Shown: piece after piece, positions 30,328-55,347 of the stretch | Layout of the letters: the number at the start of each line of letters is the position of its first letter | How positions within the stretch are numbered: the first letter of the stretch is position 1 | From: a virus | Strand: one strand, 5' to 3' | Virus record (IMG/VR): IMGVR_UViG_3300005613_000020 | Coordinates: 32,885-96,884 of that record | Length of the DNA: 64,000 bases | The notes under the pieces: generated by a model | What the model was told of the DNA's origin: nothing | The model's database searches: none | The model's input: the letters and a program-made list of their open reading frames with translations, nothing else | Program-made: the position numbers and the translations under genes

Positions 30328-31653
30328 TTACGCATTGAGGTCAGAGATTCTACCCTGAACGTCGATCCTAAGAGCGCGAAGTTCAGCCATCATATACAGA
30401 AGGCCACGGACCACCAAAGCGTCCGCATGGAAGTAATCCCTATTCTCGTAGTACTGAGTGGGAAGCGCAACCGCGATCTCAAGATAGTCAGTATCGAGAA
30501 CCATAATATCGGAACCAAGAACCGTACCAGAGTCATCAACGGACTTCATCTGGTCTGGGTCGGGAAGAATCGGAATGCCCATATAGGTTGAGAGAACAAG
30601 TCCAGTTCGGGTTCCAGGAAGGGTTCGCTCGTCGCCAACGCCAACCTGATACTCTTCGGTACCCATATAACGCTGTTGAGCCGACAGAAGTCGCTCCATC
30701 CTAAAATATTGATCCCAGCCCATTGTAATGAGCTTGGGTTCGCCACCAGCTTCGCGGATCTTCTGAATCTGAGTATCGATCATCGTGAGGGTAAGGTCTC
30801 TACCAGTTCCATCATTCCCATCGTAGTTTGCCAGAGCGGCATACCCACCAGCGGTTCTAGTTGTCAAATTGTAGCAATCGGGATTTACGGCATTGCCAGA
30901 TCCGCCAACAATCATCCCATCCTCGCAACAAATGTCGCCAAGGGAGGTTAGAGCGGCACGGGACCGTACAAAGACGGTATCGCCAGCGGCAATGGCCGTT
31001 CCAGTTGCAATGGTCACGGTTGTACCGGACACGTTGGACACGGCACGAGCGGTTCCATCAATTGCACCACCAGTCTCATCCCAAAAATCGACGGTATCGC
31101 CGATATGGAACTGGGAAGCGATTGCGGCCGAAGCGCATACAAACGTAGTTGTAGACCCGCCAGTTGCGTAGCATGCTGGGGTTGAAACCAGCTGCTGGTT
31201 AATATTCTTTACAAAGTCCCTCTCGCAAGCCTCTTGCTCGGTGGCGAGGATGTCCCCCATTCCGCCCGCAAGAGAATTAACAAAGATCGACTTCACCGGG
31301 ACGCCAAACGTTGCCGCAGGAATCTTTGGCAGCGAATAAACGCCCTCGTAGTTCGACACGTCAATGGTCGGAAGACTTCCGGTCTCTGTGACGGGGCGAA
31401 CCCTTTGGTCTCCACGGTCGGTTCTAAGAACCCAACCCGCGGTATTCCCCCACGGAACCTTCTTAATGGCATTGTAGGTGACCTTCTTATTATTAAGTGC
31501 GTCCCATACCTTGCGTCCGTAGGTCTGATTGAACGTCGAAGCTGCGGTTGTTAGGTAGGTCTGCTTTTTCAAGTAGTCCTCTCCAAAAACCTTGGTCTGT
31601 AGACCACGCTGACTTGACGCGATAAATTCAGCAATTCCTATTTCGTCAGACAT
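30328..31653 (-). CDS. Major capsid protein (HK97 fold) with inserted beta domain
   Basis: Follows scaffold; AAGGAG SD; ETGSLP, LTLTMID, YMGIPILPD, LDTDYL motifs; strong GC3 codon bias. Confidence 0.85.
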   Translation of the reverse strand: MSDEIGIAEFIASSQRGLQTKVFGEDYLKKQTYLTTAASTFNQTYGRKVWDALNNKKVTYNAIKKVPWGNTAGWVLRTDRGDQRVRPVTETGSLPTIDVSNYEGVYSLPKIPAATFGVPVKSIFVNSLAGGMGDILATEQEACERDFVKNINQQLVSTPACYATGGSTTTFVCASAAIASQFHIGDTVDFWDETGGAIDGTARAVSNVSGTTVTIATGTAIAAGDTVFVRSRAALTSLGDICCEDGMIVGGSGNAVNPDCYNLTTRTAGGYAALANYDGNDGTGRDLTLTMIDTQIQKIREAGGEPKLITMGWDQYFRMERLLSAQQRYMGTEEYQVGVGDERTLPGTRTGLVLSTYMGIPILPDPDQMKSVDDSGTVLGSDIMVLDTDYLEIAVALPTQYYENRDYFHADALVVRGLLYMMAELRALRIDVQGRISDLNA

Positions 31654-31678
31654 GTTTCATATCTCCTTATTCTTATTT

Positions 31679-31927
31679 GGAGTCTTTTATCTCATTTTCT
31701 GAGACGTTACGCATCCGACTCCCTTATGCGTTTTTTCTCCCAAATTTTTTCTCTCCATCTAGCATTATGCCGATTTCGATTTCCCTATGTCGATCCTTCT
31801 TATGGGAGACGCTCCTTTCGGAGACCTTACGGATACGACCTACATATATTCAATTGTTGTTCTCATTGGGCTCTTAGAGCTTTTACACACCTACCTACAT
31901 ATTAATAGGTACTCTATGCCCAAATGA
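31679..31927 (-). ncRNA. Candidate structured RNA leader upstream of MCP
   Basis: Multiple nested stems; tandem ~29 nt motif with compensatory changes. Confidence 0.5.
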
Positions 31928-32147
31928 CGTTCCCCGCAATCCGAGTTACAAGCCCTTTCATTATCCTTATCATGTTTCTCCTTACCTAAGTCTAGGATAT
32001 TATCTGACTCTTTTACTCTAGTGCCCTTATCATTTACCATACTTTATTATGTCAAGCCTTTTCTTTCTTTCGGCCGATCCAGCTATAACACTTTACATAA
32101 TAGGGTACACAAAACTGCACTTTTGCGAACCGTCCTAGCTAAACTCC

Positions 32148-32882
32148 TTAGTCAAAATTCCATACTCCGCCGGGCATCTGAGTGTTTGAATCTTGGTTCA
32201 TCTTCTCTTGCATCCTACGGAGTTCCTTATAGCTTAAGTCTTTCATCTTCTCAACAGTCTCGGACTCGGACTCGTCGCCCTTTAGGATTGGCATGTCACC
32301 AGTTCCCAGGTCTCGACTCGTTGGACTATTAAGTCCCTTGGACTCCTTAAACCCTGCTTTGCGTAGTCTTTCCTCGACAGCCTTCTGAATCATATTCTCC
32401 ATGTCTTCCTTATCTTCTTCCTTTTCCTCTTCTTGCTTCTCCTTCTCCTCATCAGAGCCTTCCTTTTCAACCTTTTCCTCTTCCTTCTCATCCTCTTGCT
32501 TTTCTACCTTATCAGTTACATTACCATCATCAATAGGCTTTTGACTCTCTTCAGGCTTAGTATCTACCTTTTCTGAACCCTCTTCACTATCCGCGCCGGT
32601 ATTCGTCATTTCTGCGGGTACATCGGGACCAGCTTCCTTGAATAGATTAGGGTAGGTAATCTCTAGTGCCTTAATGAGATTCTTGACCATCTTCTCTTCC
32701 TTCTCTTCCTCTTCTTGTTCCTTCAACTCTTCTTCTTTCTTCTCTTCATCCGCTTCCTGCTTCTGGATTAGTCGCCCAAGATAACTATTCATAGTCTCAA
32801 GGGTTTCAGCAGTTGCAGACAAGGCCAATGTGTTGCCTTCAAGCTTCTTCTCTATTGCATCCACTCTCTCATCAATATCCAT
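32148..32882 (-). CDS. Capsid scaffolding protein
   Basis: E/K-rich coiled coil upstream of MCP; GGAGG SD. Confidence 0.8.
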   Translation of the reverse strand: MDIDERVDAIEKKLEGNTLALSATAETLETMNSYLGRLIQKQEADEEKKEEELKEQEEEEKEEKMVKNLIKALEITYPNLFKEAGPDVPAEMTNTGADSEEGSEKVDTKPEESQKPIDDGNVTDKVEKQEDEKEEEKVEKEGSDEEKEKQEEEKEEDKEDMENMIQKAVEERLRKAGFKESKGLNSPTSRDLGTGDMPILKGDESESETVEKMKDLSYKELRRMQEKMNQDSNTQMPGGVWNFD

Positions 32883-33159
32883 TAGATTTGACCTCCGTCT
32901 TTTTTTTGTTCTTCAACCAGGTTGGTCTTAGCCATCCGACCTGGTGATCTACTGCAATCTTTGCCATTGTTTCCGCGTCGCTTTTTCCTAGTGATTCTGC
33001 ATGTTCTAGTTCGTGATTCATTCCCATATGAAGTTGATGCTGATTTATCTTTGACCAGTCAACATCCAATTTGTCTCCAGTCTTTCTCGCGTCTTCTATA
33101 GAGAACTTTTCTTCCTTCTTCAGGCTTTTATACAACCTTAAAATGTTCTCTACATTCAT
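32872..33159 (-). CDS. DUF5661-like protein with atypical C-terminus
   Basis: LHMGMNHELEH...AKIAVDH motif; start taken at MNVEN. Confidence 0.6.
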   Translation of the reverse strand: MNVENILRLYKSLKKEEKFSIEDARKTGDKLDVDWSKINQHQLHMGMNHELEHAESLGKSDAETMAKIAVDHQVGWLRPTWLKNKKKTEVKSNGY

Positions 33160-33288
33160 TCCTAATTTCTCCTTTATTACACGCAAAAAAGTAGGACTCG
33201 CAGGCACCCTCCTATATAGAGTATTCCTACTATCCTACTCTTTACTTTTCTACTGTACCGCTATGCTTAGCTTTAACCCACTATACCA

Positions 33289-34324: not shown

Positions 34325-37300
34325 TTAGCTTAGTTTCTTTTTTATCTCTTCAGATATAGTGTTTCCTATCTCTTCAAGATCTAAGTCATCAGGAATTTCA
34401 ACATGTATAGGTGGTAAATCTAAGTCTTTACCTGTTTCATCCTCTTCCCTTAGAATATCATCTATTTGTGGTCTAGTAGTAGATGCAGTAGCATCCTTCT
34501 CTACCTTGTCTCCCCACTTCTTTGGAACTTCTCCGTCCTTTACCTTATGCGTAGCAACAACATCATTATCGCCTTCCTTGAATTCCTCTGCATGTTTATC
34601 GCAGAACCAGGCTCTTCCTCTTCCATCGGCCCAAAGTAATTCCTTTGTAGGAGGTTCGTCACAATGCATACATTTCGATCTTGAGTATTGTTTCTCTAAA
34701 TCCTCATCTTCAGATTCCTCTTGTATTTCCGCAAGAGCATTCCATGCTTTTACTCCCTCTTCTCTAATCCTAGCTCCTCTAAATTGTTCTGCTAAATCAT
34801 CTGCTTGGTCATGGTTATTTGATTCCTTTAATACTGCATAAGCTATTTCCATATCGTCGAAGCCCATGCTAATAAGTTTATCAAAGGTTTCTTTGTCAAT
34901 ATATACTATATCAACATTCTTTCCCTTATTCTTAGCGTGTAAAGCCCTATTATGACCATCAACTATATTAATTTCATTATCACCCACATATCCGACAATT
35001 GGAGGCATATCTTCCGCGTCAGGCCACGACTCTTCAACGAACTCTAAATTGTGCTGATCAGATTCTCTGAAAACTAGATTATTCGGATTTACGTAGTTTT
35101 CCCGCACTTCTCCTCTCGAAATATACGTTTTCCTATCAGGACTTCTCGTAATTTCACCTCTATTATATTCTACATTTCTCTTCTTTGGTCTTATCCACCT
35201 CCTTGTTTCCTCCTTCCATTCAAGTCCAGTTCTTGGTGGGGGTCCAGGAGGACCGGCTCTCACTACTAAATCCTCCTCTTCCGATGTTGTTGGAACATAT
35301 TCAGGACTCTTTATTATCTTTTCTCTATCTGTGTCGGGAGTTGGTTTATCTAATCCCTCTTCATCTTGTTTACGCTCTAGCTCATACTCTTCTGGAACTA
35401 GTTCTATCTTCTCTATTTCTTCTTCCTGCGACTTTTCTGGAGTGGGTAGTGCAGGCCCTACAAAATCAGTTTGTAGTTTCTTCAATCTCAAATCACCCTT
35501 AACGATATCAAGATATGTCTTGCTTCTTTCTTTTCTGTCGCCTTTATAGATAATTGCATTGTTGTCAGATCCTTGGATCTTTCTTACATTCCATCCAGGA
35601 AACTCCGCAGCAAGGTCTACTATACTATCCCAATGATGTCTGTGATCTCCTTGAAGTCTTTTGCCTAGTGGAACGATATGTGCTACATTTTGTCCTGCTA
35701 CTCTTTCGCTTTCATCCAATGCCTTTTGTATGTCCTCGATATGTTCTAATACATGCATTGAAATAATCGTGTCAAATTCATCATCTTCGTATGGAAGTCC
35801 CTTACTGATATCACAATGATCTACAACGATACCATCTTCCTCTACATCCTTTGTTACCATCTCATCAATATCAACTCCGCGAACCCAATAATGAGAATTC
35901 CGTAAAATCTGTAGTAAGCTACCGTTTCCACAACCAAGCTCTAGAACCTTATCGCCTACAATACTTTTCATCAACTCTGCCATGTCAATTATAAGGGGTT
36001 CAGTTGTTGAACCATATCCCCTATCAACCTTCTGTATTACTTCTTCTCCATTCACTTGTTTCAGCATACCAAACTTCTCGCAAGGAACTAACTCAAGCTT
36101 ATATAACGGTATGTGCTCTTTGTTTTTGTCTAGGGAGCTAATATAATTTAGCCTGTTCTTCTGTTCTGGAGATATCTCTCTAGCTAGCCTGACCTTTACG
36201 GCTTCCGACAGCCATGACTTGTCATCTGAACGAATTAATATATCTATCTTACCGTTCTTCCCCTTCTCTATCATGTCGCCAACCATTGATACAGTACAAT
36301 CTGACAACTCTAAAGTCTTTTTAGGAAATACATTGACTGCATCATCTAGAGAAATTATCTCAAGATCTGTAACCTTTTCTTCTTCCTCTGCCTTATCTCC
36401 CTTTATAAGGTTGAAATGAGCCTTTTGGTTTGCTGGATTCTGGACAAAAGAAATCTCAGAAAGTTCTAGTGCTGTAACCTTAAGGTAGCTTCCTCCCCCT
36501 GCTTTCTTAACATCCTCTTTCTCTGTGGCTATTCCAGCAATTGAATAAGATCTAATGCTACCATTCTTGATCTCTTCCCTTACCTTCTCTGGTATCCTTC
36601 CGCTACTATTTATCTCAGAAACCACAAACAATCCTTTGTCTGATATACCTGACCTATAGATATTTCCTTCTTTATTAATGAATAGGGGAATTATCCATCC
36701 TACCTGAGCATCGCTATTATGAAATACAATACCCTTTCCACAATATGTGTGATCTTTGTCTACATTTAGATCATATACATATCCATCATAATGATTTTTT
36801 CTTACAGACAATATCTTGGTTCCATTAGAAACTTGTAGACTATCTTTGGATAACAACAACTCAGTTAAATATGCCTTCCATTTATCCCTATTAAAATTCG
36901 TTTTTCCATGACATTTATCACAAAGAGTTATTAAATTAGATGAAGTAGAATTTTCTTTATCATAATCAATATGATGTACATATAATGATGAATCAACAGA
37001 ATTATTACTAGCACCACATATCATACACCTATTATTATCCCGATTTCGTGTTTCTTTTTTTACCTCTTCGGTAAATCCTATATAAGTAAAATCGATAGAA
37101 TGGCCATCTATATAAGAAGGATTATTCTTTCCTGAGAATGCTAAAGACCTACATTCTTTAGAGCAAAATACTTGGTAGCTCCGTTTCCTTGAAATTTGGA
37201 ATTCCTTCCTGCAATATTTACAGACTAATACCTTAGGTCCTTTATATCTTGGATTCTTAATTCCTGAGACTGAAAATGACAGTCTATTTTTTATCTGTAA

Positions 37301-38023
37301 TGCTTTATCTTTACCGTATATTTCAAATAATGATTTTCCCTTTCTTATATTTGCTGTTATTTTGCTGGGATTTTCTCCTCCTTCTTTATTATCCCACCAA
37401 GGTGTGTGTCCTATAGCATATTCTCTACTCATCTTTAAAATAACATCATTTTGTCTTATATCTTTAGCGTATATCCATCCCCTTTTAGTCAATACCCTAT
37501 GCCTATCGCTAATCCTAATAGTTTCTCCATTATCTAGTTCTAATAAGTTAATGTCTGACACATACCTATATTTATATACATCAAGAACCTCGCATCTTCT
37601 TCCCTCAGAAGAAATGACAAAATCTCCTATTTTGATATCCCCTATTTCCTTATATTTATTATCAAAGCTTCTATCTCCGCGTACTTTAATTTTGGTTTCT
37701 GGGGCAAGGCAATGCATTACAATACCATTTCTAGTTCTGAAGTTCTTCATGAACTTAGAAAACGCTTCCTTCAAAGCGTCTGTTGTAATCAAATGACCTT
37801 GCTTGTCAATAACTTCAACTGAAGCATATCCACCTACGATTAGTGGCTCTCCCTCAAATCCTCTCTCTTTAGCCATATCTAAATACTTTTTGTTGTTAAA
37901 GTATCTATTCAATGTCAATAACTCAGCGTGGGAAATAATATCAACATCAGGAGCAAGCTTTTGTGCTTCGTATAGTGCTAGATATTCTTCAATGTGTTTT
38001 CCTATATCTTTCTTCTCTGCCAT
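34325..38023 (-). CDS. HK97-family prohead protease polyprotein: protease (intein-split), NTase-like, class I SAM MTase, PPGPPP module, ParB/Srx-like, Zn finger
   Basis: GYASVEVIDKQG, VMH, SYSIAG, LSEISFV..PAN; VG...DILIR; VLELGCGNG, GVDID, HVLEH; PPIV...IVDGHNR; CMHC...FCDKH. Start taken at MAEKK. Confidence 0.85.
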   Translation of the reverse strand: MAEKKDIGKHIEEYLALYEAQKLAPDVDIISHAELLTLNRYFNNKKYLDMAKERGFEGEPLIVGGYASVEVIDKQGHLITTDALKEAFSKFMKNFRTRNGIVMHCLAPETKIKVRGDRSFDNKYKEIGDIKIGDFVISSEGRRCEVLDVYKYRYVSDINLLELDNGETIRISDRHRVLTKRGWIYAKDIRQNDVILKMSREYAIGHTPWWDNKEGGENPSKITANIRKGKSLFEIYGKDKALQIKNRLSFSVSGIKNPRYKGPKVLVCKYCRKEFQISRKRSYQVFCSKECRSLAFSGKNNPSYIDGHSIDFTYIGFTEEVKKETRNRDNNRCMICGASNNSVDSSLYVHHIDYDKENSTSSNLITLCDKCHGKTNFNRDKWKAYLTELLLSKDSLQVSNGTKILSVRKNHYDGYVYDLNVDKDHTYCGKGIVFHNSDAQVGWIIPLFINKEGNIYRSGISDKGLFVVSEINSSGRIPEKVREEIKNGSIRSYSIAGIATEKEDVKKAGGGSYLKVTALELSEISFVQNPANQKAHFNLIKGDKAEEEEKVTDLEIISLDDAVNVFPKKTLELSDCTVSMVGDMIEKGKNGKIDILIRSDDKSWLSEAVKVRLAREISPEQKNRLNYISSLDKNKEHIPLYKLELVPCEKFGMLKQVNGEEVIQKVDRGYGSTTEPLIIDMAELMKSIVGDKVLELGCGNGSLLQILRNSHYWVRGVDIDEMVTKDVEEDGIVVDHCDISKGLPYEDDEFDTIISMHVLEHIEDIQKALDESERVAGQNVAHIVPLGKRLQGDHRHHWDSIVDLAAEFPGWNVRKIQGSDNNAIIYKGDRKERSKTYLDIVKGDLRLKKLQTDFVGPALPTPEKSQEEEIEKIELVPEEYELERKQDEEGLDKPTPDTDREKIIKSPEYVPTTSEEEDLVVRAGPPGPPPRTGLEWKEETRRWIRPKKRNVEYNRGEITRSPDRKTYISRGEVRENYVNPNNLVFRESDQHNLEFVEESWPDAEDMPPIVGYVGDNEINIVDGHNRALHAKNKGKNVDIVYIDKETFDKLISMGFDDMEIAYAVLKESNNHDQADDLAEQFRGARIREEGVKAWNALAEIQEESEDEDLEKQYSRSKCMHCDEPPTKELLWADGRGRAWFCDKHAEEFKEGDNDVVATHKVKDGEVPKKWGDKVEKDATASTTRPQIDDILREEDETGKDLDLPPIHVEIPDDLDLEEIGNTISEEIKKKLS
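36716..37711 (-). mobile_element. Intein (332 aa) with HNH endonuclease in prohead protease
   Basis: CLAPET...HRVLT...VYDLNV...FHN|S; internal RDNNRCMICG, VHHIDYDK, LITLCDKCH. Confidence 0.92.
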
Positions 38024-38025
38024 GA

Positions 38026-38256
38026 CTACAACTCCAATTCCCGAAGGTCTAACCAATATAGGTCTTTAATCATATCCCAGCGGGTTCCTTTCAATTCCTC
38101 TCCCTTATGATACGGGAATACCGGCATTCCGCTACTAGTAGCTAGAATTACTCCGTTAACTCTAACAGAATTAAATGGATCTTCAACTTTTTCATAGTAA
38201 TTCCAGTCCAAGACTAGAAAATCAACCTCTCCGTTTTCCTTACTCCTATAACGCAT
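38026..38256 (-). CDS. Hypothetical protein
   Basis: Coupled TAATG start. Confidence 0.6.
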   Translation of the reverse strand: MRYRSKENGEVDFLVLDWNYYEKVEDPFNSVRVNGVILATSSGMPVFPYHKGEELKGTRWDMIKDLYWLDLRELEL

Positions 38257-38696: not shown

Positions 38697-38706
38697 CCTA
38701 TGATGA

Positions 38707-38729
38707 GGAGAGGGTTTTACACCCTCTCC
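38707..38729 (-). terminator. GC-rich hairpin
   Basis: GGAGAGGGT-5nt-ACCCTCTCC. Confidence 0.5.
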
Positions 38730-38747
38730 CCATTCCTTAAGGATTTA

Positions 38748-55047: not shown

Positions 55048-55064
55048 TCAACACCTCTAAAGCC

Positions 55065-55119
55065 ACATAAGGTCAAATTAACCCTCCGCTTGCGGTCGGA
55101 CTTCAATTAGTTTTTATGG
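55065..55119 (-). mobile_element. attC-like site 2 (degenerate)
   Basis: CCATAAA-AACT-AATTGAA...CCGCAAGCGG...TTAATT-TGAC-CTTATGT; L boxes pair with one extrahelical base. Confidence 0.55.
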
Positions 55120-55313
55120 AAAAGGGGCAATTGTGAGCTTCGCCTTTACATAAGTCTGGTCTTACATATCCCTAGCCAATTTGGGATGACAGCCTATACT
55201 GTCTAGGATTTTCCCCTCGCTCAGTATCACAGGCGGATACAACTTTCTCTAGACATCACCCTATCGATGTTGGCATCCTGTGATCTCCTCATCCTATGCC
55301 CCTTTCTCCATAA
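55114..55313 (-). ncRNA. Candidate structured non-coding RNA (ORF-less cassette)
   Basis: 16-17 nt terminal inverted repeat and several internal stems; no substantial ORF. Strand assumed from surrounding genes. Confidence 0.5.
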
Positions 55314-55347
55314 CGTTTAAGTTCAGCCGCCATTCTTATTGTTATAT
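55308..55347 (-). mobile_element. attC-like site 1 (left arm shortened)
   Basis: ATATAAC at stop of 55347 ORF...GGCGGCTGAACTTAAAC-GTTATGG. Confidence 0.5.

Follow-up and report, generated by a model that had tools for sequence, protein, structure and literature searches.

A structured, lineage-specific non-coding spacer with a decayed duplication of the capsid gene start in an uncultivated marine phage

What can 494 nt of non-coding sequence be doing between the scaffold-like gene and the major capsid protein (MCP) gene of a phage, two genes that are normally adjacent? The question is raised by IMG/VR virus record IMGVR_UViG_3300005613_000020, a 96.9-kb uncultivated marine phage (~97 kb) with direct terminal repeats, of which bases 32885-96884, i.e. 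a stretch of 64,000 nt, form the window analysed here and referred to by all coordinates below, unless another record is named. The minus strand carries almost all genes of the phage and, when it is read 5' to 3', the capsid locus consists of the prohead-protease polyprotein, several small ORFs, a DUF5661 protein, the scaffold-like gene, the gap and the MCP gene. An original prediction, made from the letters of the sequence, had singled out this gap (put at ~490 nt), two copies of a motif and a small upstream ORF (uORF) within it, and had proposed that it holds either an undescribed cis-regulatory RNA, which might control the stoichiometry of capsid to scaffold, or a packaging-associated RNA. 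The main features of the locus are:

34325-38056, minus strand: prohead-protease polyprotein, 1243 aa, containing an intein as well as HNH and methyltransferase domains
32872-33207, minus strand: DUF5661 protein, between the small ORFs and the scaffold-like gene
32148-32882, minus strand: scaffold-like gene, 244 aa, very acidic and Glu/Lys-rich in composition
31654-32147, minus strand: scaffold-to-MCP spacer, 494 nt, non-coding, of which ~450 nt are read as a lineage-specific insertion
31931-32147, minus strand: distal spacer segment, of unique sequence and without significant structure
30328-31653, minus strand: MCP gene, 441 aa, ATG at 31653; PF17236 SU10_MCP, E 4e-8

The scaffold-like gene, with its stop at 32148, lies between the prohead-protease polyprotein and the MCP gene. 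Its product matches no Pfam or PHROG family, and its C-terminus (residues 165-237) is conserved in the ORF found upstream of MCP in at least 75 relatives. The MCP itself has at least 1232 homologues in metagenomes, of which many are marine (Tara, JGI), and no match by tblastn among 50,697 phage records, cultured or deposited. MAGs labelled Nitrosopelagicus and Dehalococcoidia also include contigs of relatives, a placement that is probably due to mis-binning. The phage lineage is rich in mobile or homing-type elements, i.e. inteins and HNH-nuclease matches at four sites of the genome (G000:C1 17453-17581, 39010-39129, 47512-47628 and 69786-69911; six-frame search), one of which is inside the intein of the prohead-protease polyprotein. 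Upstream of the same polyprotein, after a small ORF of ~68 codons, a perfect 13-bp G+C-rich hairpin of the GGGGAGAGGGUGU-AAAAC... type is observed (window 38703-38733, minus strand); it has no U-tail and is, therefore, not a classical terminator.

What related phages have at the same place was read from 80 IMG/VR loci whose MCPs are 55-63% identical to that of the window, both genes being placeable in 77 of them. In 77 out of 77 measurable relatives 14-58 nt separate the end of the scaffold-like ORF from the MCP start, as the original prediction had expected of these two genes, and the 49 distinct spacers in this size range are all AT-rich with an SD and nothing else, without hairpins. The final ~30 nt before the window's own MCP start resemble such an ancestral short spacer. 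Therefore, given the 14-58 nt of the relatives, the extra ~450 nt is to be read as an insertion which, as far as sequence comparison goes and among the relatives read, is confined to this phage lineage. This absence covers MCP identities up to 63%; it excludes the two closest MCP relatives in the protein database (83% and 76% identity; Logan/ENA), which were found in neither the IMG/VR nor the JGI loci. The GTDB relatives are three only, with MCP identities of 56-57%. A 49-aa ORF identical to the one in the gap was called on an independent 6.3-kb ENA contig; part of the insert has, therefore, been assembled independently, and the insert is not an assembly artefact.

The spacer has the same GC as the genome (0.397), and no second copy of the whole spacer was found in the latter. 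When gap words were compared with all other intergenic regions by short-word BLAST and k-mer counts, chance matches only were obtained; CATAAGGGAG-like words, considered as a shared signal, proved unrelated and were rejected. Since the genome repeats no part of the gap elsewhere, the gap is not a repeated phage promoter or a mobile repeat. Neither did blastn against cultured phages return any match to the gap, nor did Tandem Repeats Finder report anything within it, and a tRNA/tmRNA search was equally negative. Its similarity to the 3' end and to the start region (32800-33000) of the scaffold gene, tested over the whole gap, is not significant.

Known RNA families and transcription signals are likewise of little help in explaining the gap. 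In a search of Rfam 15 at E up to 10 over positions 31000-33000 no match falls inside it, and a weak plus-strand match to TeloSII_ncR30, which touches its MCP-proximal edge, scores 17.9 bits vs a gathering score of 86; at gathering scores, no family reaches threshold in the whole 64-kb window. The families covered include ribozymes, ToxI-type repeats and CRISPR repeats, and with neither phi29 pRNA nor any other Rfam family matching in the gap, the proposal of a packaging-associated RNA finds no support. Sigma-70-like sites are present in the genome at chance frequency (51 found vs 50.1 expected) and, therefore, a 10-of-12 site of this type between the two motif copies (TCGACA-18-CATAAT, 31793-31764) is no evidence of a promoter. 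Intrinsic terminators are no more frequent than in shuffled sequence. Both CsrA (PF02599) and a TnpB/Cas12f-like domain (PF07282) are absent from the 96.9-kb genome.

Two short ORFs of the gap deserve attention:

31914-31973, minus strand: 19-codon uORF, ATG at 31973, TAG at 31916-31914, AAGGAG 4 nt upstream of the ATG
31891-32040, minus strand: 49-aa ORF, no SD, orphan

The uORF is there as originally described, with its SD and with a stop codon that falls inside the 5' arm of a big hairpin (see below). The 49-aa ORF has no match other than itself in 5.8 billion clusters and 1.84 billion representatives and, by this measure, is probably not a gene. A 95-aa frame on the plus strand has no homologue, and Pfam and PHROGs, at E up to 1, gave no match for the six stop-to-stop frames of at least 41 aa that lie mainly in the gap. 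Six-frame searches of the genome for HNH and GIY-YIG nucleases found nothing in the gap and, for GIY-YIG, nothing anywhere. A decayed homing endonuclease gene, which the original prediction had itself named as an origin of the region that would undo its RNA reading, finds no support, the gap frames showing no residual protein similarity in the Pfam, PHROG, HNH and GIY-YIG searches.

The MCP-proximal part of the spacer has an internal history of its own, which involves the following segments:

31761-31864, minus strand: unit A, upstream duplicate, now decayed, of the MCP leader with SD and first codons
31630-31739, minus strand: unit B, working MCP leader, SD, ATG and first 8 codons
31812-31839, minus strand: motif copy 1, GUCG, a weak hairpin with CGUAA loop (hairpin 1) and a CUCC-GAAA-GGAG hairpin (hairpin 2)
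31691-31719, minus strand: motif copy 2, in which hairpin 2 is UCUCA-GAAAA-UGAGA

Local alignment of 31864-31761 with 31739-31630 gives 76 identical positions out of 118 and a score of 54, against 32.5 ± 6.0 for the null, a value reached by 1 of 500 shuffles; in a region-wide test, with scoring that permits an extended alignment, the extended duplication has p ~0.01. By these alignments the twin motif is the best-kept core (23/28 positions, flanks ~60% identical) of a tandem duplication, ~105 nt long, that comprises the leader of MCP, its SD and its first codons and extends 24 nt into the MCP coding sequence. Unit A has decayed: AAGGAU stands in place of its SD, and the segment ATG-TCT-GAC has been lost. 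Four duplicated codons encode Glu-Ile-Gly-Ile in both units, with 3 differences, few in number and all at synonymous third positions. When 31761-31782 is compared with 31630-31644 (minus strand), unit A is seen to retain Glu-Ile-Gly-Ile in the MCP frame; the N-terminal peptide of MCP differs in the closest MCP relatives (DDINL, DEMSL). That unit A came from a sibling phage by recombination is a possibility. Compared with units A and B and with the flanking genes, the distal part of the spacer is not significantly similar to any of them, and the 283 nt that remain upstream of the duplicated units resemble nothing in these or in the rest of the genome.

The two motif copies are indeed at 31839-31812 and 31719-31691, 120 nt apart from start to start, as originally located, and they are the only two in the 96.9-kb genome, also when a covariance model built from both is used. 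Five substitutions and one indel in a loop separate the copies. Of these substitutions, four make up two compensatory pairs, namely C8-G14 to G8-C14, closing the CGUAA loop, and C20-G25 to A20-U26, closing the GAAA/GAAAA loop; the 5' GUCG and the CGUAA loop are invariant, and both copies have a U-G wobble in hairpin 1. Simulations that placed five random substitutions in 28 nt and counted pairs in any shared helix of at least 3 bp gave two or more compensatory pairs in ~0.4% of cases, a figure to be read with n=2 copies and with stems chosen after both copies had been seen. Of the compensatory changes claimed for both hairpins, the two pairs stand, but hairpin 1 has a predicted pairing probability of ~0 in both copies, i.e. 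essentially no predicted stability; that of hairpin 2 is 0.5 in copy 1 and 0.97-1.0 in copy 2. Copy 1 folded alone is no better than shuffles (z 0.1), RNAalifold applied to units A and B finds no common helix with covariation and, under strict scoring, the core is only marginally significant as a repeat in the 518-nt region (p ~0.055).

The four point differences of the motif share one codon phase, being third positions of an open 41-codon frame (31849-31727) that reads R-I/M-R-K/N-V-S-E across it. A coding origin of the motif was, however, rejected as the main reading because two of the four differences pair six bases apart and the frame has neither a start codon nor a homologue. Outside this genome, a 24-nt exact pattern with N at the four variable sites gave 0 matches in IMG/VR, JGI metagenomes and GTDB genomes, and the covariance model of the two copies (R1), run on 83 related loci and 4 related records, had no hit with E under 0.1. 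Upstream of homologous MCPs, where its absence had been named beforehand as the outcome that would speak against a regulatory RNA, motif and insert are absent in all 77 loci read (55-63% MCP identity). A recurrent, undescribed RNA family is, accordingly, not supported by these searches, and nothing in them points to one.

The excess of predicted structure is a separate matter. The whole gap folds with z -3.54 vs shuffles, and the signal is confined to the MCP-proximal 277 nt (z -3.46, i.e. about -3.5; none of 200 shuffles as good), the distal 217 nt folding no better than shuffles (z +0.24). On the antisense strand folding is almost equally good (z -3.23), the sense strand being 9 kcal/mol more stable, and the energy excess alone is, therefore, no proof of a role at the RNA level. 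The elements predicted on the sense strand, together with the start region that they precede, are:

31860-31927, minus strand: big irregular hairpin, ~20 bp in three helices, UCAUUUGGGC/GCCCAAUGA, AGAG/CUCU and UACCUA/UAGGUA
31736-31809, minus strand: long-range helix UCUCCCA/UGGGAGA, which bridges the unit A end and the unit B start
31679-31722, minus strand: closed module, a GGAGUC/GACUCC stem around motif copy 2
31648-31668, minus strand: MCP translation start region, SD AAGGAG at 31668-31663

The big hairpin (31927-31860) has an MFE of -22.6 kcal/mol vs -10.2 ± 2.6 for shuffles (z -4.8) and is present in all folds, as is the long-range helix in which UCUCCCA at 31809-31803 pairs with UGGGAGA at 31742-31736 (z -3.2 for its module). 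In the closed module, GGAGUC at 31722-31717 pairs with GACUCC at 31684-31679 (MFE -14.1 kcal/mol, z -3.85). The further stems named in the original prediction thus all recur in the minimum-energy folds, where they belong to these three modules. Directly 3' of the closed module, a predicted-unpaired, A-rich stretch extends into the 5' half of the SD, the module with copy 2 being 10 nt upstream of the A-rich MCP start region. There, a predicted 7-bp hairpin, AGAUAUG-AAA-CAUGUCU (31664-31648), covers the AUG and half of the MCP SD; the AUG and the AG within the SD have unpaired probabilities of 0.03-0.2 at every leader length tried. In the AT-rich spacers of the relatives, nothing resembling this hairpin over the MCP AUG is seen.

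The observed anatomy of the spacer, its absence from the relatives read, the excess of structure and the duplication would be best accounted for, in a judgement that stops somewhat short of even confidence, by a lineage-specific structured intercistronic leader of the MCP message with an ordinary role. A ~450-nt non-coding insertion would have entered the ancestral 14-58 nt scaffold-to-MCP spacer, and its MCP-proximal 277 nt, transcribed with the late operon, would fold into three mRNA hairpin modules, which are, in order, the ~20-bp irregular hairpin, the module of the long-range helix and the closed module with copy 2. Transcription of the region as a single message is inferred, as is every functional step of the model. 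RNase III-type cleavage at the long hairpin could, for example, serve mRNA processing, and a site for this enzyme would be an irregular ~20-bp duplex between cistrons, which is the form predicted for 31927-31860. A hairpin at the new 5' end may then be protective and contribute to mRNA stability, and the hairpins together with the open start region could uncouple MCP translation from that of the scaffold.

Since the relatives do without the insert, it may also be functionless, i.e. the gap may be a relic made of a decaying tandem duplication and of leftover foreign DNA, derived for example from illegitimate recombination or a lost mobile gene, that has not yet been deleted. We regard this as doubtful, although an insert unique to one lineage, a unit A that has lost SD and ATG, a distal 217 nt without structure and without similarity to anything, and a core of marginal significance as a repeat (p ~0.055) would all agree with it, as would a genome rich in mobile elements (inteins and four HNH sites) which carries a second orphan non-coding insert at 55061-55346. 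However, no protein-level remnant is left in any frame, folding is far better than in shuffles for each of the three separate modules, and the compensatory changes argue against neutral decay; moreover, the units are ~36% diverged and the insert is, therefore, old, and yet it is retained in an otherwise compact structural operon. The better conservation of the core with respect to its flanks and the two compensatory changes are a hint of more than generic hairpins, and the twin double-hairpins might be operators by which free MCP, the scaffold or some other RNA-binding protein of the phage tunes MCP translation, possibly acting jointly with the hairpin over SD and AUG. Such operators, which we consider rather unlikely, would be in keeping with a core of 23/28 inside flanks that are ~60% identical, with the low frequency (~0.4% of simulations) at which four of five substitutions fall in two compensatory pairs, with a U-G wobble in hairpin 1 of both copies that fits RNA pairing and not DNA symmetry, with the invariant CGUAA loop and 5' GUCG, with the stability of the closed module that holds copy 2 and lies 10 nt upstream of the A-rich start region, and with a start-region hairpin that is predicted to hide the AUG. 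The motif, however, consists of two copies in one genome, with stems picked after both had been seen, and is absent in the 77 relatives, in the 83 loci and 4 records searched with the covariance model, and in IMG/VR, JGI and GTDB; the pairing probability of hairpin 1 is ~0, copy 1 alone has z 0.1, and the genome offers neither a CsrA-like gene nor an identified partner protein. It would be more improbable still that the twin motifs are operators in an undescribed feedback loop in which a virion-assembly protein, i.e. free capsid or scaffold, matches capsid synthesis to assembly. In such a loop unit A may be a recombination import from a diverged sibling phage; if it is, the compensatory differences in the hairpins and the synonymous-only differences in the four duplicated MCP codons would record selection on the same leader in two lineages.

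The readings that dispense with an RNA element carry far less weight. That the gap encodes one or more micro-proteins, through the 19-codon uORF or the 49-aa ORF, and is thus a small accessory gene, has very little to recommend it: an AAGGAG does precede the ATG at 31973 by 4 nt and a gene caller did call the 49-aa ORF in the ENA assembly, but the latter has no SD and no homologue among the 1.84 billion representatives, no family matches were found, and ORFs of such size are expected by chance in 494 nt. It is just as hard to credit that the 28-bp repeats are DNA sites at which a regulator loops the intervening 120 bp around an MCP promoter. They are direct repeats 120 bp apart that flank the 10-of-12 sigma-70-like site at 31793-31764; promoter-like sites are, however, at chance frequency (51 vs 50.1 expected), a third site is absent from the genome, and compensatory changes with a U-G wobble suit RNA and not a DNA site.

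The structured intercistronic leader is the reading that is retained in the following, with the corresponding reserve. Of the undescribed cis-regulatory RNA of the original prediction, three elements hold, namely a gap that is non-coding as far as the protein searches tell, a structured MCP-proximal half and two copies that differ in a structure-preserving way, but the motif does not recur in relatives or databases, and a new regulatory RNA at this spacer is not shown by the sequence evidence. If the hairpins work, one event of insertion and duplication would give the phage post-transcriptional control of its most abundant protein, and hundreds of relatives, which keep the ancestral, unregulated state, are available for comparison. 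At present, the spacer is an orphan of one genome, that of an uncultivated marine phage, and it adds no recurrent RNA family. The same genome contains, at window 55061-55346 (minus strand), a second gene-free, orphan, hairpin-closed non-coding insert with strong folding (z -3.45), which has no sequence in common with the scaffold-MCP gap; with respect to this insert (55114-55313) the gap is larger and holds a gene-start duplication. Given this second case, orphan structured inserts seem, therefore, to be a habit of this phage lineage.

Several known phage systems invite comparison. The nut sites of lambda consist of boxA and boxB, and were considered here along with the put RNAs of HK022. As in lambda nut, a conserved linear box with a short hairpin behind it is present twice, and hairpin 2 of copy 2, with a 5-bp stem and a GAAAA loop, is like the boxB of nutR, although such hairpins are common; hairpin 2 of copy 1 differs from boxB in having 4 bp only and a GNRA tetraloop, GAAA. 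Unlike lambda nut, neither motif copy has a boxA (CGCUCUUUA-like) sequence next to it, no downstream terminators are predicted and no N-like protein was identified; furthermore, the nut sites follow two early promoters, whereas both motif copies are found 120 nt apart in a late structural operon.

Phage translational operators include the coat-protein hairpins of MS2 and PP7 and the T4 sites for gp32, gp43 and RegA, and the scaffolding gene of P22 is subject to post-transcriptional autoregulation. The spacer resembles the MS2, PP7 and T4 operators in having small hairpins with invariant loops in or near the start of a structural gene, one of its hairpins containing the AUG. It differs from them in that the motif is not conserved in relatives, hairpin 1 is thermodynamically negligible and no binding protein is known.

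Polycistronic phage mRNAs also carry intercistronic hairpins for RNase III processing, as in the R sites of T7, and stabiliser hairpins at 5' or 3' ends. Unlike the T7 R sites, the spacer is an insertion of one lineage and is not conserved in a group, the likeness being one of predicted fold, with no sequence family behind it. Within these terms, its ~20-bp irregular hairpin with internal loops, placed between two highly expressed late genes on the same strand, is like a T7 R site, and its further hairpins, just upstream of an open, A-rich ribosome-binding region, are like those of known stabilisers.
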